Assembly: GCA_016432525.1 (NCBI GenBank)
Contig: CP066693.1
Coordinates: 352,815-416,814 of the forward strand
From: Candidatus Woesebacteria bacterium
GTDB taxonomy: Bacteria > Patescibacteriota > Microgenomatia > UBA8517
Length of the DNA stretch: 64,000 nt
Direction: 5' to 3'
Part shown: one piece after another, positions 491 to 31,631 of the stretch
Position numbering within the stretch: position 1 is the first letter of the stretch
How the letters are laid out: every line of letters begins with the position of its first letter
Position numbers and translations under genes: made by a program
Notes under the pieces: model-generated
Database searches by the model: none
What the model saw: only the letters and a program-made list of their open reading frames with translations
What the model was told of the DNA's origin: nothing

Positions 491-2875
491 CTACACCCAA
501 GGAAGTCCACGAACATACAACTGTTCGTAGTTGACCCTAGGCCGACGTCCAGTGCGGATAGCGTTAAGCATTTCCTCGCTGTCCCTTTTTGTTCCAATGT
601 AGAAACAAGGATCGATCTCCAACATCGGGGGTTTTCCTTGTCCCTGTTTCAGAAACTCTACAATTGCACGCCAAAAACCAATGAGCGGTGCTTGAAAACC
701 AGTTTGATAGAACTCAAACCGAACTGGTTTATTGAGACGATAGATGTCGCCAAGTTTCCGCCGAGTGATCTGATAACAAAGCTCGTCCACTTCAGCGCTT
801 GTCATTCCAGGCTGGGACACTTCAATGTTTCTGAACCAATACTGGTGAACCATTGAATCCATTTCTGGATGGCGCATCGAGATCATTCCCATCCGAATTG
901 GAGGTTGGCTTCTAAGCTGCTGCATATCAATGTCATTTCTTGGCTTCAGAACAAACAACTGAAATGGTCGTGCCTGTGATCCGTCTGTATAGACAATGTT
1001 TACTGCAATTTCGTGAGTTACATCCTTGGGTGGGCGTTCATAGACCATCTGACGAAGAGCCTTTGTGGCAATCATATGTGGAACCTCACTTAAGTTCACT
1101 CCATTAGCTTGTCCACGACGGCTTGAGCTTACTGCTCGCCAGAGATGCTTCACCACAATTTCATCGAAAGGCAAATTGCCATAATCGTTAATCCAGTCTG
1201 GAACAAACTGCCCAATAAAAGCTCTGGTGAGTTGTTCAACTGGAACCACTGTTTGTCCGACTGACTGAGTTTGTTGTGCATGTTTGTTTTGCACTGCAAT
1301 TACGACCTGGCCTTGTTGTTGCGCCTGTTCTAAAAACTGCAGTTTAAGCAGATTTTCGTGTTGAGGCATCCAAAACATTGGCAACAATCTCGTACTTCTT
1401 GCTTTCTCTGGAGATTGAATCCAAAGATTCGCAAGAACCGATAAAGTAAATTGGTCCAAAACAATACTTTCGTATTGTCCGGAGGCAAGTGCCTGATGTG
1501 CCAGAAATTGTATCCTGTCACAGACTAAATGGTAACGAGCGCGAACGTTGTGTTTGTTCACACCACGCCTAAGTTCGTATTCATCGTAGACTGCTTGTTC
1601 AGTTAGTTGAGATAACAGAAGTCGCCCAATCTGCAAGTTACGAGGAACAGCCACGAGCCTAATTTCGGTTGAATTGAAATCAAGCTTTGAAATAACTGCT
1701 TTGATCTGCTCACGTTCTTCGCCACTTCCTACATCATGTCGCATGGTTTCGCATTCGCGAAGCCGTCTCATTACTTCTGTATCCAACAAAGCAACGCTTT
1801 CAGGACAAATCATGAGTGTCACACCAATTTGTAAGAGTGCTTTTCGATAGCGCTCCAATTCTTGCTCTGATATTTCCAATACATTGCGTGGAACAAGCAA
1901 GAAAAAGTGTGTCGGCTTGTCAGCATAGGCTTGTTTAAGCGATTGCAGTGCATGTGCGTCAGTTTTGATGTAATACACAAAATCCGCCCAATCGCGCGCG
2001 CGAACCATAACTACTATCCGCTCTCCAGCTTGAACCACCAAATTACGATTTACGGTCCATGGAATGGGAGTTTCTTCCCTTGTTTCATAGATTTTTGCAA
2101 AATAGCGCGGGTCAAAGCCGATTGAGATATAACGTTCTGTTTCCTCAAGATCAGTGACCTTCCCGTCTTCTCCTATTATCTCTTTGAGTTTCAGAGTGCG
2201 GTCAAGTATTCCTCCCAAGACAATGTCTCGAGTACGCAAGACCACATCCTGATAAAGCAGATATTCTTCCGGCGTGATTTTGCCCAAAAGAATGTTCTCT
2301 GGAAATTCAGCCCCAAGCAAGAGAGATTCCATCTCCTCTTTTGTGTAGGTAAGATGATGAACCATATAGCAAACCCGCTCAGGAGAGACTTTGTCAGCCA
2401 AAGATAACTCCATTGCGCGCTGCGCTGCTTCAGGACTAAATTCCGTGAGTGCCAAGTATAGAAGCCTAGCTTCTTTTGGTGTAATGACGCCTAAGTCTAT
2501 ATGCTCCTGTTTCAGAAATACTCTGTATTCCTCTGCCATAAGAACAATGGCCGCAGGAACACTACCGCCCTCGACGTTTTTGGCAAACCTAAACCCCATC
2601 GAGGAACCACTTTTATAAGCTTGAGAAAGGATGTAAATAGTAGCAAATTTCGTTCCGCTCCAACCAGAAATAGCATCTGGATCGTAAGTCAGGAACACGT
2701 CTACTTCCATCACATTGTCTTTCTCCTGAAGCCTAGCAACTACCTTGAAAAGAATAACATCCCGAATTGCATGTCTAACAGGACGCCAATCCTTATCTCG
2801 AGGTGCTTTGCCAATGGAGCTAAACTGCTTGGTGAATCTCTCCAAATGCTGATCAAACAGTGCTAAAGCATCCAT
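491..2875 (-). CDS. Large hypothetical protein (794 aa), no recognisable catalytic or NTP-binding motif; G+C-rich island gene
   Basis: Long uninterrupted ORF with an AAGGAG Shine-Dalgarno before the ATG. No Walker A, HEPN or PD-(D/E)xK signature seen by eye. Internal repeat-like segments LVPRNVLEISEQELERY and AVPRNLQIGRLLLSQL. Much higher G+C than the flanks. Confidence 0.6.
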   Translation of the reverse strand: MDALALFDQHLERFTKQFSSIGKAPRDKDWRPVRHAIRDVILFKVVARLQEKDNVMEVDVFLTYDPDAISGWSGTKFATIYILSQAYKSGSSMGFRFAKNVEGGSVPAAIVLMAEEYRVFLKQEHIDLGVITPKEARLLYLALTEFSPEAAQRAMELSLADKVSPERVCYMVHHLTYTKEEMESLLLGAEFPENILLGKITPEEYLLYQDVVLRTRDIVLGGILDRTLKLKEIIGEDGKVTDLEETERYISIGFDPRYFAKIYETREETPIPWTVNRNLVVQAGERIVVMVRARDWADFVYYIKTDAHALQSLKQAYADKPTHFFLLVPRNVLEISEQELERYRKALLQIGVTLMICPESVALLDTEVMRRLRECETMRHDVGSGEEREQIKAVISKLDFNSTEIRLVAVPRNLQIGRLLLSQLTEQAVYDEYELRRGVNKHNVRARYHLVCDRIQFLAHQALASGQYESIVLDQFTLSVLANLWIQSPEKARSTRLLPMFWMPQHENLLKLQFLEQAQQQGQVVIAVQNKHAQQTQSVGQTVVPVEQLTRAFIGQFVPDWINDYGNLPFDEIVVKHLWRAVSSSRRGQANGVNLSEVPHMIATKALRQMVYERPPKDVTHEIAVNIVYTDGSQARPFQLFVLKPRNDIDMQQLRSQPPIRMGMISMRHPEMDSMVHQYWFRNIEVSQPGMTSAEVDELCYQITRRKLGDIYRLNKPVRFEFYQTGFQAPLIGFWRAIVEFLKQGQGKPPMLEIDPCFYIGTKRDSEEMLNAIRTGRRPRVNYEQLYVRGLPWV

Positions 2876-2981: not shown

Positions 2982-4262
2982 TTACTTATCTAGGGATTCA
3001 CTCAGTACTTTTACTTGAGCAATTGTTTGGGACAAAGTGCTAAATGGGTGGAAAGTCATGTGTTTTTTTATTAAGTACGTATAATTTTTTGTCTGTTTAG
3101 CTATGGGAAAGAGATGATTAAAAGTTACGGCATAAAGTTTAGGTAAATCCTGATCTGGGTTTTCATAAGCTTCTATTAAAAAGGCGATATCAGCTATGTT
3201 ATTCAATACATCAGCCACTCTAGCTCGATAGACCTCGGGTGATAATTTTTTTAGTAGCTTGAATTCAATCCAGTATGGGTTAAACTCAATTGAGTCTATC
3301 CACTTTGAGTCTGAGTTCCAATTTGTTTCAAAGGATTTCAAGTCGCCAATAATATCACCTAATTCATGGATTAGTTCAACAATCTGTTGACGGCGATTAA
3401 CTTTCTTGTTAATGACTACATCAAAACTGTCTATTTCTTTGACATAATATGCTTGTGAGTTTCTATCTGCTAATTTAATTTTTATTCTATCCTTGAACTT
3501 ATCTAAAATAGGATATTCTCGAACCACAAAGTCTAAGACTCCATTAGGAAAAGTAAACTCAGGAAAATTTGGCAATAAACTAAGAAAGCCGTGCTTCCAC
3601 TGATTGTTAAACTGTGAATAAAACCAATTTGGAAGTTTAATTTCAGGGATTTGTTTTTGGCAGTAATTTATTACTTTTTCTCTATTGTCAAGAAAATATT
3701 GATAGTCTACTCTGTTTCCAGCCGACCTGTCAGTTTGATTTTTAAAACCTTTAGTTTTAGCCAGCTGATTACGAGACTTTACTAGATTGACATACCTTGG
3801 CTTTAATCCTTCAAATATTGGCAGGTAATCTTTAAGTATTTGAGCTTCGGCATCAGTTGCAACTCTTTTATCTAATTCATTCCAAATATCTACAATATTG
3901 AGGGTCTTCTCATTTAACCATTTGTCGTTTTCATTTGGCTCTGGCAAAACTTTCTCCATATATTCACTTTGAACCTTAATGTTTCTGTTCATTGCTTTTC
4001 TGTATTGTTCGTCTTTTTCCTCTAGTTCTCTTACAATTACTCCTATATTAGAGTTATATTCATTAAAAACAACGGCAGCATTAACCCAAAATGATACATA
4101 AGAAAATAGGCTTCGAGTCTTAGGACTTGGGAGCTTTTTAAAATTCTCTTCTGCATCATGAGCCGCTTTTTTAACAACTTCCATCAGAACATCAAGATCA
4201 ACCCGCTCATAATGTGCGGGTAACCCTTTACATATTATTTCTAACTGTGTTTTGCTAAACAT
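2982..4262 (-). CDS. Hypothetical protein (426 aa), low-G+C gene embedded in the high-G+C island
   Basis: Clean ATG-initiated ORF (MFSKTQLEIICKGLPAHYERVD...). K/N/E-rich composition like the host backbone. No known motif recognised. Confidence 0.55.
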   Translation of the reverse strand: MFSKTQLEIICKGLPAHYERVDLDVLMEVVKKAAHDAEENFKKLPSPKTRSLFSYVSFWVNAAVVFNEYNSNIGVIVRELEEKDEQYRKAMNRNIKVQSEYMEKVLPEPNENDKWLNEKTLNIVDIWNELDKRVATDAEAQILKDYLPIFEGLKPRYVNLVKSRNQLAKTKGFKNQTDRSAGNRVDYQYFLDNREKVINYCQKQIPEIKLPNWFYSQFNNQWKHGFLSLLPNFPEFTFPNGVLDFVVREYPILDKFKDRIKIKLADRNSQAYYVKEIDSFDVVINKKVNRRQQIVELIHELGDIIGDLKSFETNWNSDSKWIDSIEFNPYWIEFKLLKKLSPEVYRARVADVLNNIADIAFLIEAYENPDQDLPKLYAVTFNHLFPIAKQTKNYTYLIKKHMTFHPFSTLSQTIAQVKVLSESLDK

Positions 4263-4349: not shown

Positions 4350-4898
4350 TTACACCCTTGAACGGTCAATCTCAAAGTCAGGAGCAAACTTTGGATCCTG
4401 TGGACAGTTACCTCGCGTTATCGGATTTGAAACTTCTTCTCCTCTCTGATTCGCGATTATCACTTCCTCCACGCTTCTGTGCGGAATCCCCTCATTATCT
4501 ACAAACTGCAATTTGGTTCCAAAGATCATAGGCGTGAAATTGTGATTTGGCATTACAGGTACTACCTCACCATTAGGTCGACATTGGAAGGCCTTGACTG
4601 TATTGTCGTTATAAATCAACAGATTCACTCTGCCTTCAGGTATCATCCGAGTATCCGTACCTACGATGGTCTTCCCTGTATCAAGTTTGTCTTCCAGGGT
4701 CTGCATTGATTGCCAAAAATTGTCTCGATCAGCACTGAACTGTCTTGCAAGTTCGATCTCCGCTTTGTTCTGCGAAAGTTCGCCTTTAACACATGCCTCG
4801 ACAGTTTTATCTATTACTCCCCCTGCTTGTGCTTGGTATTCCCTCGCTGCTTCGTTGATTCCAGCGTTTTCTTTGACATTTCCGTCTTTGACACACAC
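4350..4898 (-). CDS. Hypothetical protein (182 aa), divergent from the helicase gene
   Basis: ORF with a GTG start (MCVKDGNVKENAGINEAAREYQAQAGG...). G+C-rich. Shares the 160-bp intergenic region with the helicase. No known motif. Confidence 0.5.
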   Translation of the reverse strand: MCVKDGNVKENAGINEAAREYQAQAGGVIDKTVEACVKGELSQNKAEIELARQFSADRDNFWQSMQTLEDKLDTGKTIVGTDTRMIPEGRVNLLIYNDNTVKAFQCRPNGEVVPVMPNHNFTPMIFGTKLQFVDNEGIPHRSVEEVIIANQRGEEVSNPITRGNCPQDPKFAPDFEIDRSRV

Positions 4899-5059
4899 AG
4901 ACCTTCTCCTTCTGACTCAATCTGACAAAGAACTTCCTTTCGGAATATTAAATTATACACTATGAGCTCATTTTGTGCTATCATACTGGCTATGCTTTTA
5001 CCGTGTAAACGGAAAAGCGCACATTAACAGTTGGGTTATTTAATACAAAGGAGTAAGAA

Positions 5060-9320: not shown

Positions 9321-9520
9321 AGATCAATATGATTCTAAAGAGCAGGGCTTTTCTATTTCTAAAATGGTTGTTGTGCAACTCTTAGAGGAAGTTAATCTTA
9401 TTTTTTATCAATACCCTCCAAATAACTACATAGTTGCTTCAAGGTTCGAATCCAAACTTACGGGTTAACACGGGCTAGAACGGATTAGTGCCATTCCGTC
9501 AATGGCTATAGGATATTTAG

Positions 9521-9591
9521 CTGCGGGATAGGGATTCGAACCCCAATATGCAGATCCAGATTCTGCTGTCCTACCATTAGACGATCCCGCA
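9521..9591 (-). tRNA. tRNA-Gln (anticodon CUG)
   Basis: Minus-strand sequence TGCGGGATCGTCTAATGGTAGGACAGCAGAATCTGGATCTGCATATTGGGGTTCGAATCCCTATCCCGCA folds as a cloverleaf. U1:A72 and G73 discriminator are typical of bacterial tRNA-Gln. Anticodon loop AUCUGGA. T-loop TTCGAAT. CCA is not encoded. Confidence 0.8.
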
Positions 9592-25445: not shown

Positions 25446-27506
25446 CTATTTACTTGCTTCAGAAGCGCCGATCATGCCCTGCAAAAGTTCAGGCATGTAC
25501 CAGATCTGCTGATCGGTCGCAACCTCGCCATTCGTGAGAAAAACTTTGCCGCTCTGATAGTTCAGAGGACCAGTGAACAGGTTGACCTTACCATTACCCA
25601 TATCATTAACAAAACCTACCAAAGTGACCTTCTGGTCAGCCGTCAGGGCCGGACCGTAGGCAAAACCCACATTGGACTCATCGGGATCATTGATATTCGA
25701 CCATTTAGGTCCGTTCCAATCCCAGTTAGAGTGCCAAACGCCAGCTCTAAACTCCGCAATAGCCTTAACATAGGCAGGTCCCCAGTTAAAGTACGGTACT
25801 CCCAGGCACGCACCAGCTCCTAGATCACAGGCTCCTTGATAGTCATACGGCACAGCGAAAATTTTCTCGCCCCTGTCGACACGCTGCTTGGTGACAACTA
25901 TCGCTTCAGGTGTGTCGATACCTGACATGACTACATCAGTGCCATTGTCAAAAAAGCCGTTAGCAACTTCAGTCGGGTTCAAGGTGACTCCTGGAATGTT
26001 GAACCAGAAGCCAATCCATTTTACTTCGAACCGAAGAGAGTTGGGATCACCCCCTCTGTACTTTTGAAAACAGTAGCGTACGCCAAGGTAAGCAGCTGAA
26101 GCCAACCGTCGTGTTTCATCGTTGACGAGAGGTCCAAGATAGCCAATTTTATTGGTCTTGGTTGCCAATGCGGCAGCGCATCCACCAACCATCTTCATAT
26201 ATTCCATGCGGCCCATGAAATTCCCGAGATTCTTAGGCACATCGCCTTTCAGGACAGCATCACCAGAAACGTTGATGAACGTGATATCTGGATATTTTTT
26301 TGCAACGACCGTTGTATCAGCCTGGAAAGCATCAGAGGTGGTGATGATCAGTTTAGCTCCTTCTGTCACCATGTCTTGGACCACCTGATCTAGGGTAGTA
26401 TTAGGTCGGTCTGCCGAATTGAGTTTATCCAAGGTGACATTCTTCACGCCAGGAATCTTGCTTTCAGCATAGAGAACTGCACGAAAATGTGCTTCGCTCC
26501 ACCCTTTGTCTTCCTGTGGCCCAACCAAAATAATCCCAACTGTGGTTGTCTTTGAGCTGTCTGAGTATTCCACCCAACGTTTCAAAGTCGCAAGAAAGAC
26601 CTTGGCTGCATTATCAGCGGCAAGTTGGAAAAACGTCCCTATCTCATTTGCTCCTGGCCCTCCGCCTGCTAGATCCGAAAGAGACCTGAAGATGAGAAAT
26701 GGAACCTGGTTAACATAGGCAACATGCGCAACAGCACTGGATTCCATATCCAAGCTATCAGCTTGCCATGTTTTCCATGCCCACTCTCTAAAAGCTGCGT
26801 TGTCAACGAATGTCTGTCCCGCAACTCCATTTCCGCCGACTTTTACAATAGGCTTACTTTGAAGGCACGTTTTCTTCTGTCCACGTTCAACACAATCAGC
26901 CAGTGTAACATCAGCAGTAGCTGCCTTTGCAACAGCAAGCATCTGTGGATCAGTCTGGAACCAGTAAATGCTCTCACTTGTATCTACAGGAACGCGACTG
27001 CTCGTTACTGAAATAGGTTGTGGAAACATGAAATTGAAATTTGGAAGAGTTGCGTCTACGCCCGAGTAATTTCCAGGCGTGTCCTCGCGGGCAAAATGCA
27101 TCTCCTGATACTGCGCCCATTGCGATGGTATAACAACATCACCGATGTTTAAATTCGGATTCACACCTCCTGCGATTCCTGAAAAGAAAATCCGTTCGAT
27201 GTTGAAAAGATCCAGAGCAACTTGCGTTGTCATCGCGGCATTCACCATAGATACACCTGAAAGGTAAGCCACAACAGGCTTCCCATACAGCGTACCTTTA
27301 GTAAACGTTCTACCGTTAACAACAACTGCACATTCTACTCGAACCTCCTTCAACCAGAGAGTAAGCTCCGATCCAAAGGCCGACTCCAGTGCAATGCGTT
27401 GCACTTTGTCGGGTTGGCAAGCTGTTTGGCCTGCTGCCTGTGACGTGGTCACAAGTCCCAACATTACTACAACAACCACAAAAAGTGAAAACCATCTACG
27501 AGCCAT
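25446..27506 (-). CDS. Secreted fusion protein: MTA/SAH-nucleosidase-like (PNP_UDP_1) domain + BMP/PnrA-family nucleoside-binding domain
   Basis: Likely start at ATG 27506 (GGAGG SD; MARRWFSLF signal peptide); the track ORF begins 12 nt upstream. N-terminal domain: FSGIAGG, GDVVIPSQ, LDMESSAVAHVAYVNQVPFLIFRSLSDLAGG (compare MtnN VEMEATAIAHV...RAISD). C-terminal domain: KKYPDITFINVSGD, KIGYLGP, GTDVVMSGIDTP, typical of BMP family ABC substrate-binding lipoproteins. About 50% G+C by eye. Confidence 0.7.
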   Translation of the reverse strand: MARRWFSLFVVVVVMLGLVTTSQAAGQTACQPDKVQRIALESAFGSELTLWLKEVRVECAVVVNGRTFTKGTLYGKPVVAYLSGVSMVNAAMTTQVALDLFNIERIFFSGIAGGVNPNLNIGDVVIPSQWAQYQEMHFAREDTPGNYSGVDATLPNFNFMFPQPISVTSSRVPVDTSESIYWFQTDPQMLAVAKAATADVTLADCVERGQKKTCLQSKPIVKVGGNGVAGQTFVDNAAFREWAWKTWQADSLDMESSAVAHVAYVNQVPFLIFRSLSDLAGGGPGANEIGTFFQLAADNAAKVFLATLKRWVEYSDSSKTTTVGIILVGPQEDKGWSEAHFRAVLYAESKIPGVKNVTLDKLNSADRPNTTLDQVVQDMVTEGAKLIITTSDAFQADTTVVAKKYPDITFINVSGDAVLKGDVPKNLGNFMGRMEYMKMVGGCAAALATKTNKIGYLGPLVNDETRRLASAAYLGVRYCFQKYRGGDPNSLRFEVKWIGFWFNIPGVTLNPTEVANGFFDNGTDVVMSGIDTPEAIVVTKQRVDRGEKIFAVPYDYQGACDLGAGACLGVPYFNWGPAYVKAIAEFRAGVWHSNWDWNGPKWSNINDPDESNVGFAYGPALTADQKVTLVGFVNDMGNGKVNLFTGPLNYQSGKVFLTNGEVATDQQIWYMPELLQGMIGASEASK

Positions 27507-27631
27507 ACAAACCTCCATACTGCCGTTTATCCAACCATTGGATATTTGCTAGACAGCAGTATTTTGGGTATAAAACCTTACGCCCAAAAGACTGCTGTCT
27601 AAAGGTACTTTATTTGTTAAAGAGCACAAAA

Positions 27632-27654
27632 AAACTCGCAGATAATGCGAGTTA
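27632..27654 (-). terminator. Rho-independent terminator after the phosphoribosyltransferase gene
   Basis: AACTCGCA-GATAA-TGCGAGTT hairpin followed by TTTTTTT on the minus strand. Confidence 0.55.
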
Positions 27655-27762
27655 AATAAATCCAATTATTTGGCAATTGATCTTTAAATTCATATATTTT
27701 TCTCTAAGATCTAAAAGAGATTATAGATGTTACCTACAGGATAAAAACTAAAAACAATTATG

Positions 27763-28311
27763 TCAACTCCTAAAAATAGGAAGCTCACCTAAATACGTCA
27801 AATTTTTGATTTCATCAAACTGTTCTCCTTGCTTTAAAGCAGCAAAATAGGTAATAACTTTTGCATCAAGTTTTTTCATCAAATACGCAATCATGCGCAT
27901 TGTAACTCCGGTCGAGATTACATCATCAATTACAACTATTTTTTTATTTTTAAGAAGCTTTGAGTCAGACCCATTAAGTACAAGTGGTTTGATATGTTTT
28001 GGAAAATGAGAAAGAGGCTCAAGTTTAACTGGCGAAATCATATAAGGTTTAATACTTTTGCGGCATATAACAAATCTTTTATGACCCAATCTTTTAGCAA
28101 CTCCATGTATTAGTGGTAACACTTTTACTTCAGGGCCAACCAGATAATCAAACTTAATTTTCTTAAGTCTTTTTGCAATTTCATCTGCAAGGCAATCGGT
28201 GAGTTCTACGTCTCCCAAAATTGAGAAACTAGCAATTCTAGTATTCTTCCCAACACGAATAAGAGGAAGCTTTCTACTTAAACCACATATTTTTAGATCA
28301 AAATATTCCAC
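27763..28311 (-). CDS. Phosphoribosyltransferase (PRTase type I) family protein
   Basis: PRPP-binding motif KKIVVIDDVISTGVTM. Probable GTG start at 28311 (KVEYFDLKI...). The track ORF's extension to 28374 runs through the tRNA-Glu gene and is not credible. Confidence 0.65.
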   Translation of the reverse strand: MEYFDLKICGLSRKLPLIRVGKNTRIASFSILGDVELTDCLADEIAKRLKKIKFDYLVGPEVKVLPLIHGVAKRLGHKRFVICRKSIKPYMISPVKLEPLSHFPKHIKPLVLNGSDSKLLKNKKIVVIDDVISTGVTMRMIAYLMKKLDAKVITYFAALKQGEQFDEIKNLTYLGELPIFRS

Positions 28312-28335
28312 TTTTTGATATAATATAAAAAATTT

Positions 28336-28411
28336 GGCCCCATCGTCTAGTGGTCTAGGACGCCAGGTTCTCATCCTGGTAACCTGGGTTCGACTCCCAG
28401 TGGGGTCACCA
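28336..28411 (+). tRNA. tRNA-Glu (anticodon CUC), CCA encoded
   Basis: GGCCCCATCGTCTAGTGGTCTAGGACGCCAGGTTCTCATCCTGGTAACCTGGGTTCGACTCCCAGTGGGGTCACCA. 7-bp acceptor, D-loop AGTGGTCTA, anticodon loop UUCUCAU, T-loop TTCGACT. Confidence 0.8.
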
Positions 28412-30062
28412 ATCGTTCCTTTGAATTTTCAGCTTCACTGTTTAAGTCGAATATAGGTGTTAATTTGGGTGTTCCACTAACTAGTTCGGCATAAGTCGGC
28501 GTTCTCTCAAAAGTTAACTCAAAAAGTTGTTGCTGTCGAAACATGTCAGGCTCGTTTATTAGCAATTCCGAAGGGTGTTCCACTAAATGCCTTGCATATT
28601 TAAGCTTAGTTTTTATATCTTGTTCGCTTTCTTCCTTTTTATCCCTAATTGACCTGGACTCTTGAATCTTATGCTCTAGTTCCTCAATTTTTTCTTCGAC
28701 TTTCGAAATAGCTATTTTATTACTTAAAAACCTCAAGCTGTCAGCAAGTTCGCTTTGTTGAGCTAAAAGTTTAGCCACAGTCTCGCTTGCAACCTCACTT
28801 TCCTTTATAGACCCCGTTCGTTTTTCTTTCCACTTTTCGATAAATACATATTCAAACAACCTTAAAAATGAATCATCCAGTTTAAGATTTATGATGAAGT
28901 CCTCCATCACCTTGTGAACTTCGGACCTCTTTACTCTCCAACTTTCATGACCTCTATCGCAATGATATGCAGGCCGAGGAATTCCGTTCTTTCCAGTCGA
29001 TGCACTTGCCTTAGGAGTCTTATAACACATGGGGCATAAAATCATCTTTTTGTATGGGTAATAAGGGTTATCTTTCAATCTGATCTGTTTCTTTCGATTG
29101 TATTCGATTGAAGCTTCACTGTTTTTAATCTCAAGGTAGACTTTCCCTCTATTTGCCTTATTAAAAGTCTCGATTGAAACCAATCCCTTAAATTTAGCTA
29201 AGACAGGTATATGTTTAGTCCACTTTTCACAGATAACACCTGCATATATTGGTCGAGAAATGTAACTTTGAAACTGTTTTACAGTTAAAGGGACTCCTCC
29301 TATTTTACCTATCGGCTTTTTGGTCTTTGGATCTCGACGGATTCTCATACGAGAAATAAAACCTAGCTGATTTATTCGCTTAACAATTTGTTTGTCATCA
29401 AAAACTCCTTTTTCTCTCAGTTCAAACATTTTAATAATAAAGAAACCTTCTTTGTTATGTTCTTCGAGTACATTTCTTTTGCCATCAGTTTCTGTCTCGA
29501 TTTTTATATTTTGAAAACCATAGGGTGCACTGCGATTCCAGTATCCTCTTCTTGTATATGAGATTTCTTTGCTGATCATTCGGGTCAAAATCGTTCGTAC
29601 TTCCTCTTTTGAGGATTCAGCCTTCCTAAGTTCTTCAGCTTCTGATGGTGAATAAACGCTCCATGAGTACTCCATGCCCAAGTCTTCTAGTGTGTTCCTT
29701 TCTTTTTTGACAGTTTCTTCAATATCTTGAATTTCGATATTGTTTTCTTTTAGTAAATCCTTTAAGCGAGCATAATCTTTCGCCCCTCCACGAGTAAAAC
29801 GAGATATATCCTTAAAAAGCAAAACATCTATGTTGTTCTGGGGGTTGATACAGTAATCTAAAACCTCTTCGAAAAATACTCTTTCTTTTATTCGACCACT
29901 TTCGACTAATGGGAACACTTTTACTCTTTCCCATCCGTTCTTCTCTATGACACGACTACAGTCATCAACCTGACCGTCGACAGAATCTCCATATGTAACT
30001 TGCTTTGTTCCTGAAGCTCTCGCTAAGACTACAGCTCTTTTATGCTCTCTGGGTATGTTCAT
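28371..30062 (-). CDS. Large serine recombinase (serine integrase)
   Basis: N-terminal resolvase fold (AVVLARASGTKQ with catalytic Ser; RFTRGGAKDYARL). Recombinase domain. Zinc-ribbon cysteines CPMCYK...YHCDRGH. C-terminal coiled-coil region. The last 41 nt overlap the tRNA-Glu gene on the opposite strand. Confidence 0.8.
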   Translation of the reverse strand: MNIPREHKRAVVLARASGTKQVTYGDSVDGQVDDCSRVIEKNGWERVKVFPLVESGRIKERVFFEEVLDYCINPQNNIDVLLFKDISRFTRGGAKDYARLKDLLKENNIEIQDIEETVKKERNTLEDLGMEYSWSVYSPSEAEELRKAESSKEEVRTILTRMISKEISYTRRGYWNRSAPYGFQNIKIETETDGKRNVLEEHNKEGFFIIKMFELREKGVFDDKQIVKRINQLGFISRMRIRRDPKTKKPIGKIGGVPLTVKQFQSYISRPIYAGVICEKWTKHIPVLAKFKGLVSIETFNKANRGKVYLEIKNSEASIEYNRKKQIRLKDNPYYPYKKMILCPMCYKTPKASASTGKNGIPRPAYHCDRGHESWRVKRSEVHKVMEDFIINLKLDDSFLRLFEYVFIEKWKEKRTGSIKESEVASETVAKLLAQQSELADSLRFLSNKIAISKVEEKIEELEHKIQESRSIRDKKEESEQDIKTKLKYARHLVEHPSELLINEPDMFRQQQLFELTFERTPTYAELVSGTPKLTPIFDLNSEAENSKERLVTPLGVEPRLPG

Positions 30063-30219
30063 TTTGCTCTTTCATTTTACTCAAAATCTGGGAGTCTTCA
30101 ACTTTTTCGAGCACAAAATCAGCTAGAAAGGATATTTTCTGAATTACTTGTTCGACTTCGGAGTCAGTTAATCCCTTCGATACCTTTCCTAATAATTTTC
30201 TTGCCTGTTTGATTGTCAT
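30040..30219 (-). CDS. Small ORF (59 aa) overlapping the recombinase start, possible accessory/directionality factor (speculative)
   Basis: ATG at 30219; MTIKQARKLLGKVSKGLTDSEVEQVIQKISFLADFVLEKVEDSQILSKMKEQNEHTQRA. Not in the supplied track (under 60 aa). Overlaps the recombinase ATG by 23 nt in another frame. Confidence 0.25.
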   Translation of the reverse strand: MTIKQARKLLGKVSKGLTDSEVEQVIQKISFLADFVLEKVEDSQILSKMKEQNEHTQRA

Positions 30220-30328
30220 GGTGACTCTGTTTTTAGGGCATAAAAAAAGCCCTCAGCCCATTCACATGGACTTAAGGACTACATATGAGTCACCACAAAC
30301 TTTCAGGTTTTACGACGGAAAGTATCGT

Positions 30329-30652
30329 CTATTTAACTGTCCATTCGATCATATCATCTTTTGTGTAAGGTAGCCAGTAATCTCGAGGTGTTTTGTTTAA
30401 CAAGTATTTAGTAAGAAGTTTTAATTTGTTGCCTACAAAAACGAACCTACTTACATGTTCGCATTGTCTGTGTCCACATTTTGCAGATATGAAAATCCCA
30501 TGTTCGCAAGTAATCTGGTCTTTGGAAAATACAAATCCACATTTGGCACAATGAAGATTTTCTGACTGCAAAAACTTGTCTAGCCTAACTTCAATATCTG
30601 AAGTTTCTTCAAATCCATTTATAATGGTAACCATGCTCAAATTATAACTCAA
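30329..30652 (-). CDS. Cys/His-rich zinc-ribbon protein (107 aa), hypothetical
   Basis: HCAKCG...CEHG...KCGHRQCEH arrangement of Cys/His pairs. Confidence 0.45.
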   Translation of the reverse strand: MSYNLSMVTIINGFEETSDIEVRLDKFLQSENLHCAKCGFVFSKDQITCEHGIFISAKCGHRQCEHVSRFVFVGNKLKLLTKYLLNKTPRDYWLPYTKDDMIEWTVK

Positions 30653-30663
30653 GAAGATCTTCC

Positions 30664-31554
30664 TTAAGGCAAGCTTTCACAGGCAATCCCATTTCCGACA
30701 CCTTTTGCGCTGTCAAGCCGCATGGGATCATTTGTTGCGCTGAATCCACAACATTGAAAGAAGCTTTGTGCTTCTGCATGAGTTGAGAAGTCGGAGCAAT
30801 CTTTGTCGGGACCTGAACAAGAGTATTTACAGCTTCTGCCACCGTTTGTCGGAGCTGTCGGAGTCGATTGAGTAGTTTGCGATCGACATGCACTCCAAAG
30901 ACCTTTATTGGCGCTTCTAGCAGCGTTTTGGGCCTCGAGAAATTGATTTTGATACTTCACATCGGGAGGGTAAGTATAAGAATTGGCGTAGCCTTCACGA
31001 ACTAAAGAATCATTTACGAAAGTGTCTCCGACATATACATAGCGGGGCAATCGACCATACCGATCTGTCTCCGACACATCTTTTTCGAATCTTACCCCTT
31101 TGCCTTCGACCAATTGCCGATTTCGAGCTGTAGCCTCGCTTGCAAAGCATTCATTTTGAGTGAGCTCGGGAGTATCAATTCCGATATACCGCACACGCCT
31201 TCCATCGGAAAGCTCAATTGTGTCTCCGTCTATTACTCTTGAAACAGTAAAGACTTCCTGTTTGTCGGAACCTCCGACGCCGATGTTTTCTCCGACAGTT
31301 GTTGTCGGAGTTTGTGTCGGCAAAATCTCCGACTTAATGTCGGAAGTCGGAGGAGTATTATTGTCGGCAACTTTTGTCGGGAGGGTTGCTCCAAATCCAA
31401 AAAAAGATAAAACAAGCAAACCAATAAATCCAATTGTTAATTGTTTTCGGCTCAGATGTCTCTTCAATAGCCTTGAAAACAAACTTGGTTTAGCAATTCC
31501 CATAAGCAAGCCAATTGGAGAAAGCAAAAAAAGTGTTAGAAATAGGCCGTTCAT
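30664..31554 (-). CDS. Membrane-anchored thermonuclease (SNase-like) with C-terminal Excalibur Ca-binding domain
   Basis: SNase motifs VIDGDTIEL, RYIGIDTPE, RYGRLPRYVYV. C-terminal DPMRLDSAKGVGNGIACE (Excalibur DxDxDGxxCE-like). N-terminal TM helices. Start uncertain: ATG 31554 (MNGLF...), 31503, or track start 31623. Confidence 0.7.
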   Translation of the reverse strand: MNGLFLTLFLLSPIGLLMGIAKPSLFSRLLKRHLSRKQLTIGFIGLLVLSFFGFGATLPTKVADNNTPPTSDIKSEILPTQTPTTTVGENIGVGGSDKQEVFTVSRVIDGDTIELSDGRRVRYIGIDTPELTQNECFASEATARNRQLVEGKGVRFEKDVSETDRYGRLPRYVYVGDTFVNDSLVREGYANSYTYPPDVKYQNQFLEAQNAARSANKGLWSACRSQTTQSTPTAPTNGGRSCKYSCSGPDKDCSDFSTHAEAQSFFQCCGFSATNDPMRLDSAKGVGNGIACESLP

Positions 31555-31631
31555 ACTAGGCTGAATTATACCAGAAATGATGACAAGGAGTCGGAGGTAA
31601 AAGAGACAGGGAGTCACTACCATAAAAAGTA

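Follow-up and report, generated by a model that had tools for sequence, protein, structure and literature searches.

The stretch of DNA analysed here (the window) comprises 64,000 nucleotides of contig CP066693.1 from Candidatus Woesebacteria (positions 352,815 to 416,814), and one gene close to its start encodes a 794-amino-acid (aa) protein that lies in a cluster with two smaller genes of the same strand and a large helicase gene (Table 1). The open reading frame (ORF) runs without interruption from an ATG to the stop codon at 491-493 on the minus strand; translation of the same interval on the plus strand meets many stops. A first-pass annotation, made from the letters alone, had delimited this ORF correctly, and the strand can be given as minus. 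The protein has the same sequence (100% identity) as 'hypothetical protein HY044_01995' from a metagenome-assembled genome (MAG) of Candidatus Woesebacteria, and approximately 33 full-length homologues with 47-81% identity were found, so that the gene can be taken as real and constrained. Searches of Pfam, NCBIfam, PADLOC and PHROGs returned no family for the 794-aa protein or for the 426-aa and 182-aa proteins encoded on the same strand of the cluster, and a PDB sequence search with the single 794-aa sequence and two profiles found no relative. HEPN, SIR2, TIR, Walker-type NTPase and methyltransferase domains had no Pfam, NCBIfam or PADLOC match in the protein, and its conserved R668-H669 are adjacent to each other, unlike the Rx4-6H motif of HEPN. 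The initial impression of a protein without a recognisable enzymatic motif was thereby upheld, and none of the searches brought up a clear match to a characterised family with a housekeeping role.

Sequence comparison shows the 794-aa protein to be a natural fusion in which two unrelated modules, referred to as N and C, are joined. A profile search without a word index was run against 1.84 billion representatives (clusters at 50% identity) and detected relatives in 907 representative clusters at E <= 1e-3, 312 of them at E <= 1e-30. Of the best 150 relatives, 108 have the N-module alone (profile positions ~5-387), 29 have the C-module alone (~408-796) and 13 are N+C fusions, some of which are independent, as exemplified by P0152 with its different context and its SUKH domain. 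Profiles built for the two modules matched the window protein at aa 2-380 (E 4e-137) and aa 400-764 (E 5e-125). The boundary is equally visible in proteins of approximately 530-555 aa that start with a SUKH domain: their C-terminal two-thirds align with aa 3-380 at 34-38% identity, and they terminate exactly opposite residue 380. The poorly conserved linker corresponds to the position of the stop/start junction in split genes. The repeated fusion of otherwise separate, always adjacent genes is classical evidence for one N-C complex.

Many N-modules carry additional sequence at the front. The N-terminal extension measured less than 40 aa in 32 of 83 complete N-only representatives, 40-110 aa in 13, 110-200 aa in 31 and at least 200 aa in 7. 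In a sample of 42 N-module members Pfam identified SUKH in seven, a TsiV-like domain (immunity to VRR-NUC toxins) in three and NB-ARC in one. The SUKH domain (PF09346, PF14567, PF14568) occurs in relatives only and is absent from the window protein, which has no Pfam match at all; in the relatives P0035-P0037 the SUKH region aligns N-terminal to residue 1 of the window protein.

The N-module begins with an N-terminal helix, which is followed by a unit of GNAT-like pattern, made up of three strands, a helix and a strand (aa ~30-125). A helical region spans aa ~108-229, and the last part, aa ~230-380, is an alpha/beta domain in which W273, R292, D295/D306 and R379 are conserved. In the C-module, conservation is concentrated in a core at aa ~590-794 (nucleotides 494-1108), which contains the motifs Y-x-D-G-S (629-633), S-x-R-H (666-669), W-F-R-N (680-683), D697, Y-Q-T-G (723-726) and G-F-x-R-A (733-737) and a near-C-terminal W793. 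Invariant or near-invariant residues are Y629, D631, G632, S633, S666, R668, H669, D673, W680, N683, S687, D697, Y701, Y723, T725, G726, G733, F734, R736, P756 and W793, a pattern that looks like a binding or catalytic site. The AlphaFold2 (AF2) model of the whole protein has a predicted local distance difference test (pLDDT) score of 83.5, dropping below 50 at aa 383-385, the module junction, and a predicted template modelling (pTM) score of 0.80. As the C-half modelled by itself reached a pTM of only 0.57, the model is consistent with N- and C-modules that pack against each other.

The two modules are invariably linked to a specific helicase with a zinc-ribbon (Zn-ribbon), a DEAH core and S1 domains. 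In the window, this helicase retains its N-terminal zinc-ribbon motif (CxxC...CxxC(R/K)xxH) and has intact GATGAGKT and DEAH motifs. The first-pass annotation had taken it to share the orientation of the 794-aa gene, which is not the case: the helicase lies on the plus strand and is divergent from the minus-strand 794-aa gene, with the 426-aa and 182-aa minus-strand genes between them. Its further proposal that the 794-aa protein is a candidate partner of the helicase held up well, because relatives adjoin a specific helicase homologue across loci. This co-occurrence was seen in five of six Woesebacteria-type contexts, in the 31 loci of a species scan, on two plasmids and in all four loci (4/4) approached from the helicase side.

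The Woesebacteria-type comparison covered six distinct contexts, the window and five public ones. Five of them contain a helicase homologue (1320-1408 aa; DEAD, Helicase_C and S1 domains) that is divergent from a cluster of two to four unannotated genes ending in the gene of approximately 800 aa. The genes outside this block differ from context to context (RuvC and DnaE/L19; glycosyltransferase; LysM; YchF/S6/SSB). In the Blackburnbacteria locus L001 the helicase is cut down to a 184-aa ORF, which matches residues 1-184 of the window helicase (E 3e-108), and the fused N/C gene is intact with 78% identity to that of the window. The fused protein can therefore persist without the helicase.

For the species scan, one genome per species from 185,579 species was searched with a C-module pattern, which yielded 31 loci, and all loci were rescanned with the N, C and helicase profiles made in this study. 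At the 31 scan loci and at the metagenome locus L007, the C-module is followed directly by a helicase homologue wherever the contig allows. The N-module is in view at 29 of the 31 scan loci and at L007, and 27 scan loci and L007 have the N-module, the C-module and the helicase in this order on the same strand, where the stop and start codons of successive genes often overlap. Two further scan loci contain an N+C fusion, with the helicase directly after it in L041 and the contig ending just past the fused gene in L012. The other two are degenerate loci of Ktedonobacterales, in which the C-module is truncated, the N-module was not detected and the helicase matches from approximately residue 560. 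These loci, L027 and L028, retain a C-module of only 209 aa and lack the N-terminal half of the helicase.

The hosts belong to about eight phyla and include Patescibacteria (Shapirobacteria, Collierbacteria, Parcubacteria), Chloroflexota (Anaerolineae, Ardenticatenia, Ktedonobacterales, Dehalococcoidia), Bacteroidota (Cyclobacteriaceae and others), Planctomycetota (Planctomycetaceae), Actinomycetota (Streptomyces, Nocardia, Solirubrobacterales), Alphaproteobacteria (Roseovarius and another alphaproteobacterium), Gemmatimonadota (Gemmatimonadales) and MAGs labelled Pseudomonadales. Three of these MAGs ('uncultured Pseudomonadales'; L014, L018, L021) have the same flanking families (f14, f19, f20) and a near-identical layout as the Collierbacteria loci L015 and L023, and their taxonomic labels may be wrong.

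The helicases of these loci are specifically related to each other and have in common the N-terminal Zn-ribbon, the DEAH core and the downstream regions to approximately residue 740; the S1-bearing C-terminus is less similar among homologues. A metagenome search that started from the helicase Zn-ribbon recovered four loci with a true helicase, each of them directly preceded by the C-module. The remaining 76 matches are stand-alone small proteins, so that this test from the helicase side is thin. These 90-175-aa Zn-ribbon proteins (W-x-V-x-CK-x-C...SRPERC-x-x-CRK-x-H; L049-L124) come mostly from human-gut metagenome contigs and are abundant in gut metagenomes; no helicase, N-module or C-module lies near them.

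The cassette was also found on mobile DNA. It is carried by a conjugative plasmid of Paenarthrobacter ureafaciens, where it adjoins mobC and a relaxase gene, and by a 560-kb linear plasmid of Streptomyces. On these plasmids the NCBI annotation (PGAP) names two of the products 'hypothetical protein' and the helicase a 'helicase-related protein' or 'S1 RNA-binding domain-containing protein'. No phage records carrying the cassette were found. In L007, a gene for a 1222-aa protein with a DUF6094 methyltransferase and a helicase-C domain is located approximately 1.3 kb upstream of the split cassette. Proteins of this type are usually encoded on conjugative elements, and such a neighbour agrees with a cassette that travels on mobile DNA.

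Immediately upstream of the N-module lies a gene that varies between loci and is often toxin-like. In loci of the candidate phyla radiation (CPR) it belongs to a family designated f3, with a PD-(D/E)xK-like core G[FIL]D...(V/L)E[AS]K, and in a Solirubrobacterales locus it encodes an Endonuclea_NS_2 protein (E 1.4e-9). The upstream proteins of L007 and L029 contain a D...E-x-K pattern; those of L016 and L022 are small, with a C-terminal hydrophobic helix in L022 and a similar stretch seen by eye in L016. These proteins, unrelated in other respects, have an N-terminal Cys motif in common, which takes the forms M[AG]C (for example MACSNHP, MGCNNHP, MACGKPP, MGCGKPT, MACFLIM), MSQCCGK[IV]P, MGQACAEY, MACVDF and M-C-VKDGN; the motif may be a tag, an acylation site or a metal or redox site. 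In 13 of 18 non-CPR loci the gene directly upstream is an ORF of at least 90 aa that starts with M[AG]C, whereas the background frequency of such starts is 0.7% among 1,530 ORFs of the same loci. All CPR members of f3 have a Cys within residues 2-5, and this Cys, M1 and one Gly are the sole invariant positions of their alignment. At residue 2 the effectors have only A, G, S, T or C, which belong to the class that permits removal of the initiator Met, and the mature effector would therefore start with a small residue and have a Cys close behind. A universal upstream effector family was considered and rejected: the f3 profile finds CPR loci only, and the genes of other phyla are unrelated beyond the N-terminal motif. 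In Collierbacteria-type cassettes, a divergent DUF6630 (PF20335) gene adjoins the f3 gene with the PD-(D/E)xK-like core. Its product could be a separate candidate immunity protein for f3 where the N-module has no SUKH extension.

Both modules at full length and the Zn-ribbon/DEAH/S1 helicase in the same cluster identify the window as a carrier of the cassette. Its f3 protein has kept the N-terminal Cys and a coiled region, and the PD-(D/E)xK-like core is absent, as it is from the second f3 copy in L003 and from the copy in L001. Among the fetched loci, the sole homologue of the 426-aa protein (49% identity) is found in L003, the locus of the closest relative; other Woesebacteria-type loci have two further unannotated families, f11 and f12, in its place. 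The 426-aa gene is probably a lineage-specific insertion. Its product carries the sequence H-E-L-G-D, which ends in D where the second His of an HExxH metalloprotease motif would stand. The system in the window thus looks partly remodelled, with N and C fused, the helicase divergent, the nuclease core of f3 lost and the 426-aa gene inserted. The GC content at third codon positions (GC3) of the fused, f3 and helicase genes stands out from the values of approximately 0.21-0.29 in neighbouring host genes, and the tRNA-Gln(CTG) gene at the edge of this GC3-rich block is a possible island boundary; flanking direct repeats and an integrase were not found around the cassette block and this tRNA gene. 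A second patch of atypical composition further along the window is possibly another integrated element. It contains a 690-aa PNP_UDP_1 + Bmp fusion protein, a large serine recombinase with a Resolvase domain, the 5' end of whose gene overlaps tRNA-Glu, and a 319-aa homologue of staphylococcal nuclease.

Table 1. Features of the window and of the compared loci. Coordinates without a locus identifier (L001 and so on) refer to the window.
Feature	Coordinates	Strand	Remarks
Fused gene (N-module + C-module), 794 aa	491..2875	-	GC3 0.41
N-module, aa 1-380	1736..2875	-	Elsewhere a ~385-aa stand-alone protein or behind a SUKH/TsiV-like domain
Linker, aa 381-400	1676..1735	-	Poorly conserved; low model confidence (block means 54-71)
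C-module, aa 401-794	494..1675	-	Elsewhere a stand-alone protein of 340-430 aa
426-aa gene	2982..4262	-	No family match; GC3 0.29 (host-like); between Cys-motif gene and fused gene
182-aa f3-family gene	4350..4898	-	GTG start; M-C-V-K-D-G-N...; GC3 0.42
Divergent intergenic region	4899..5059		Promoter-like minus-strand match at 5009-4980 (consensus match only)
Helicase, 1408 aa	5060..9286	+	Zn-ribbon, DEAH/RHA (HrpA-like) core, three C-terminal S1 domains; GC3 0.37
tRNA-Gln(CTG)	9520..9591	-	234 nt past the helicase stop, edge of the GC3-rich block
Second atypical patch	25446-31623		Possibly another integrated element
PNP_UDP_1 + Bmp fusion, 690 aa			Within the second patch; GC3 0.45
tRNA-Glu	28336-28411		Overlapped by the recombinase gene
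Large serine recombinase	28371..30062		Resolvase domain
Staphylococcal-nuclease homologue, 319 aa	30664..31623		GC3 0.37
Helicase remnant, 184 aa	L001:7703-8257	-	Blackburnbacteria
Degenerate cassettes	L027:9980-13882; L028:3418-7404		Ktedonobacterales
DUF6094 methyltransferase + helicase-C protein	L007:3469-7137	+	Upstream of the split cassette
Stand-alone Zn-ribbon protein (example)	L070:5932-6279		One of L049-L124
Cys-motif genes	L013:7261-7848; L019:3365-4009; L016:7853-8194; L022:7833-8237; L025:7872-8198; L029:6934-7602; L007:8437-9096; L030:7320-7916; L031:7262-7921; L038:6933-8051; L039:7189-7854; L040:6871-7968; L042:6840-7940		CPR f3 genes in L001-L023 and L041
DUF6630 genes	L014:7695-8288; L015:7667-8260; L017:1299-1685; L018:140-730; L020:7892-8275; L023:7638-8228	-	Adjoining f3 genes

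Taken together, the 794-aa protein is best explained, with a probability of roughly 0.6, as the fused non-helicase core of a horizontally mobile conflict or defence system that comprises three to four genes and has not been described; the docking of effectors, their regulation, the trigger and the role in defence or addiction are what we infer for it. The N- and C-modules would form one complex, which would dock the effector via the Cys-containing N-terminal peptide and thereby keep it harmless, and a SUKH or TsiV-type domain on the N-module would, where present, add to this docking. The helicase, an RNA-type translocase with S1 RNA-binding domains, would act as the sensor or motor for nucleic acid, probably RNA. 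When it meets foreign or aberrant nucleic acid, the effector would be released or activated, as in abortive-infection or addiction systems, and the outcome would be a controlled deployment of the toxin that serves either abortive-infection defence or plasmid addiction. The N/C/helicase machinery looks cytoplasmic, since N and C contain neither a signal peptide nor a convincing membrane segment; hydrophobic stretches in the helicases are isolated and barely exceed the hydropathy threshold.

Several observations weigh against this explanation. PADLOC-DB 2.0 models match no component of the system, including the proteobacterial and Chloroflexota versions and the four-gene cassettes L038 and L013; for the window helicase PADLOC gave weak Cas3 matches only (E 4e-5). 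Foldseek searches with the predicted structure, both as the full model and as the C-half, were without a match in PDB and BFVD at E <= 1e-3, and neither module has a homology-based indication of activity. SUKH-type N-modules without a Cys-motif gene upstream occur in the loci of Streptomyces, Nocardia and Dehalococcoidia and on the Paenarthrobacter plasmid, so that the effector is either not obligatory or located elsewhere. Similarity among N-module extensions partly tracks phylogeny and not effector type (L031 and L040 have related extensions and different effectors), and with this confounding a toxin-immunity pairing is not proven. Finally, the f3 gene of the window itself encodes no recognisable toxic domain.

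A bolder version of the conflict-system explanation is tentative: a short tag, generated by removal of Met and consisting of a small residue and a Cys, may mark interchangeable toxins for capture or covalent modification by a dedicated unit of novel fold, composed of a GNAT-like N-module and a CARF/SAVED-like C-module and fused in the window, with the helicase reading foreign RNA and licensing release. Such loading of effectors by a tag would be a principle that is not described for any defence or toxin system, and the chance that this way of handling effectors is new in kind is substantial.

Compatible with a conflict system, but unlikely in its specific assignments, is the reading of the modules as enzymes or as a ligand sensor, in which a GNAT-like N-module would acylate the effector N-terminus and the C-module would be a CARF/SAVED-like nucleotide switch. 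Foldseek with the full model listed GCN5/PCAF (E 0.29-0.9, probability 0.35-0.66, template modelling (TM) score ~0.33 on target) and a few GNAT entries in BFVD. These GNAT matches recur in both databases and, like the nuclease-type matches, vanish when only the C-half is searched, and they therefore map to the N-module. There, aa 55-120 follow the order strand, Gly loop (with the invariant G74), helix, strand, helix, which reads like the acyl-CoA-binding half of a GNAT, and the Met-removal class of effector residue 2 would suit an enzyme that acts on the exposed N-terminus. The nuclease-type matches, Mus81-Eme1 and Nt.BspD6I (E 0.2-0.65, probability up to 0.66), are likewise confined to the N-module. 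No PD-(D/E)xK lysine stands at the right position among the invariant residues; a Q-[ND]-K at aa 529-531 of the C-module is conserved in the fused subfamily only. For the C-module, the CARF/SAVED proteins Cap5, Cap4, Cam1, Sso2081 and Csm6 recur (E 0.0027-0.5, TM 0.26-0.40 on target), with Cap4 at E 0.0027 in the search with the whole model and Cap5 at E 0.037 and Cam1 and Sso2081 at TM 0.38-0.40 on target with the C-half, and the invariant D, S, R-H, N and D of its core would be in keeping with such a site. All of these structural matches are, however, weak (E of at least 0.0027) with poor root mean square deviations (rmsd), and generic Rossmann-like proteins match the C-half as well as CARF proteins do. 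GNAT Pfam models found nothing in the window protein, and neither GNAT nor CARF models matched any of 42 + 31 diverse members, the 42 N-module relatives included. A cyclase-like gene or other signal-producing enzyme was not seen in the cassette in more than 40 loci.

It is rather improbable that the cassette serves bacterial competition as a polymorphic-toxin system, in which the Cys peptide would be a signal for trafficking, lipidation or processing, the SUKH/TsiV domains the downstream immunity, and N/C and the helicase the apparatus that matures or exports the toxin. The layout does fit, in that the N-terminus is conserved, the toxin domain at the C-terminus varies and an immunity-type domain is encoded directly downstream, and M-G-C and C-C-G-K N-termini resemble acylation motifs. 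Yet N and C have neither of the features of exported or membrane proteins named above, no secretion component is present, and the effectors are short and lack known trafficking domains. To our knowledge, 3'-5' RNA-type helicases with S1 domains have no role in export, and the actinobacterial cassettes have no toxin gene.

A lineage-specific housekeeping role in Patescibacteria, in which the protein would serve an HrpA-like RNA helicase as a cofactor, for instance in the quality control of ribosomes or RNA, is very unlikely. The DEAH/RHA-like helicase with S1 RNA-binding domains, the unusually strong conservation of the approximately 33 homologues and the small genome (916,571-bp contig) would agree with it. 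The sparse and patchy spread (31 loci in 185,579 species genomes with the pattern used), the plasmid carriage, a GC3 atypical for the host, flanks that vary among close relatives, the L001 helicase reduced to a remnant beside an intact fused gene and the linkage to nuclease-type effectors and immunity-type domains all speak against it.

The chance that the protein arose by internal duplication of one domain, as the first-pass annotation had suggested from two related-looking segments, is negligible, and the idea was rejected at the sequence and profile level. The minus-strand translation does contain the two quoted peptides (LLVPRNVLEISEQELERYRKAL at aa 326 and LVAVPRNLQIGRLLLSQLTEQAV at aa 407), and they have in common only VPRN and the preceding hydrophobic residues (local score 23, 5 residues aligned). 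There are three strand-end motifs of three to four hydrophobic residues followed by P-R-N (aa 325-330, 407-412 and 641-646), but of these PR[ND] motifs only the first is conserved family-wide. The Smith-Waterman score of the N-half against the C-half is 40, compared with 36.6 +/- 5.8 for shuffled sequences, 49 of 200 of which scored at least 40; profile-profile comparison of the halves by hhalign gave a probability of 0.2% (E 0.28), self-comparison of either half by hhalign returned no second alignment, and in most lineages N and C are independent genes.

Both modules belong to a large family that lies outside Pfam, NCBIfam, PADLOC and PDB, and yet their linkage to the helicase is among the tightest between genes in this analysis. 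That nuclease and membrane effectors can be swapped, that immunity-type domains occur and that plasmids carry the cassette all point to a mobile conflict system which is widespread and has been missed by annotation, and even Patescibacteria with genomes of approximately 0.9 Mb carry such cassettes. The N-terminal Cys motif on unrelated effectors provides a concrete handle on effector recognition. Natural N+C fusions, including the gene in the window, predict a physical complex and offer a single-chain target for structure determination. No description of an N/C/helicase system was encountered in full-text searches of the literature, in which the 2012 polymorphic-toxin survey was covered by a term search of its text.

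Parts of the cassette resemble known systems. Many stand-alone N-modules start with a domain of the SUKH (SMI1/KNR4; PF09346, PF14567, PF14568) or TsiV (PF11876) immunity families and, as immunity genes do, come directly after a variable nuclease- or membrane-type gene. In contrast to these proteins, the window protein has no such domain, some cassettes have SUKH and no toxin gene, and described toxin-immunity pairs contain nothing equivalent to the ~380-aa module behind SUKH, to the C-module or to the helicase. The CARF/SAVED sensors of CBASS and type III CRISPR (Cap4, Cap5, Cam1, Can2, ring nucleases) are the commonest named matches of the C-module model. Unlike confident members, the C-module matches them only at E of at least 0.0027, TM of at most 0.40 and an rmsd of 8-20 A and with no profile match, and the modelled resemblance may be a generic Rossmann-like one. 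Similarly, the N-module combines weak recurrent matches to GNAT (GCN5/PCAF) with the order of elements at aa 55-120, whereas compared with canonical GNAT its unit lacks the first strand and two helices and catalytic residues are not assignable. At the level of families, the core of the partner helicase matches HrpA and HrpB best (TIGR01967, TIGR01970; E 2e-50 and 2e-44); the helicase reaches 171 bits against a curated cut-off of 723 bits and is set apart by its N-terminal Zn-ribbon, its triple S1 C-terminus and its obligatory N/C neighbours. Hachiman, an anti-phage system of the nuclease HamA and the helicase HamB, may follow a similar logic, in that a large superfamily-2 helicase is tightly linked to a nuclease-type effector in a mobile, patchy cassette. 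It differs in that the helicase described here is DEAH/RHA-like with S1 and Zn-ribbon domains, that two extra proteins are obligatory and that the effectors are Cys-tagged. From its gene content, the cassette, which no database names, would belong with the conflict systems that combine a helicase with swappable effectors.

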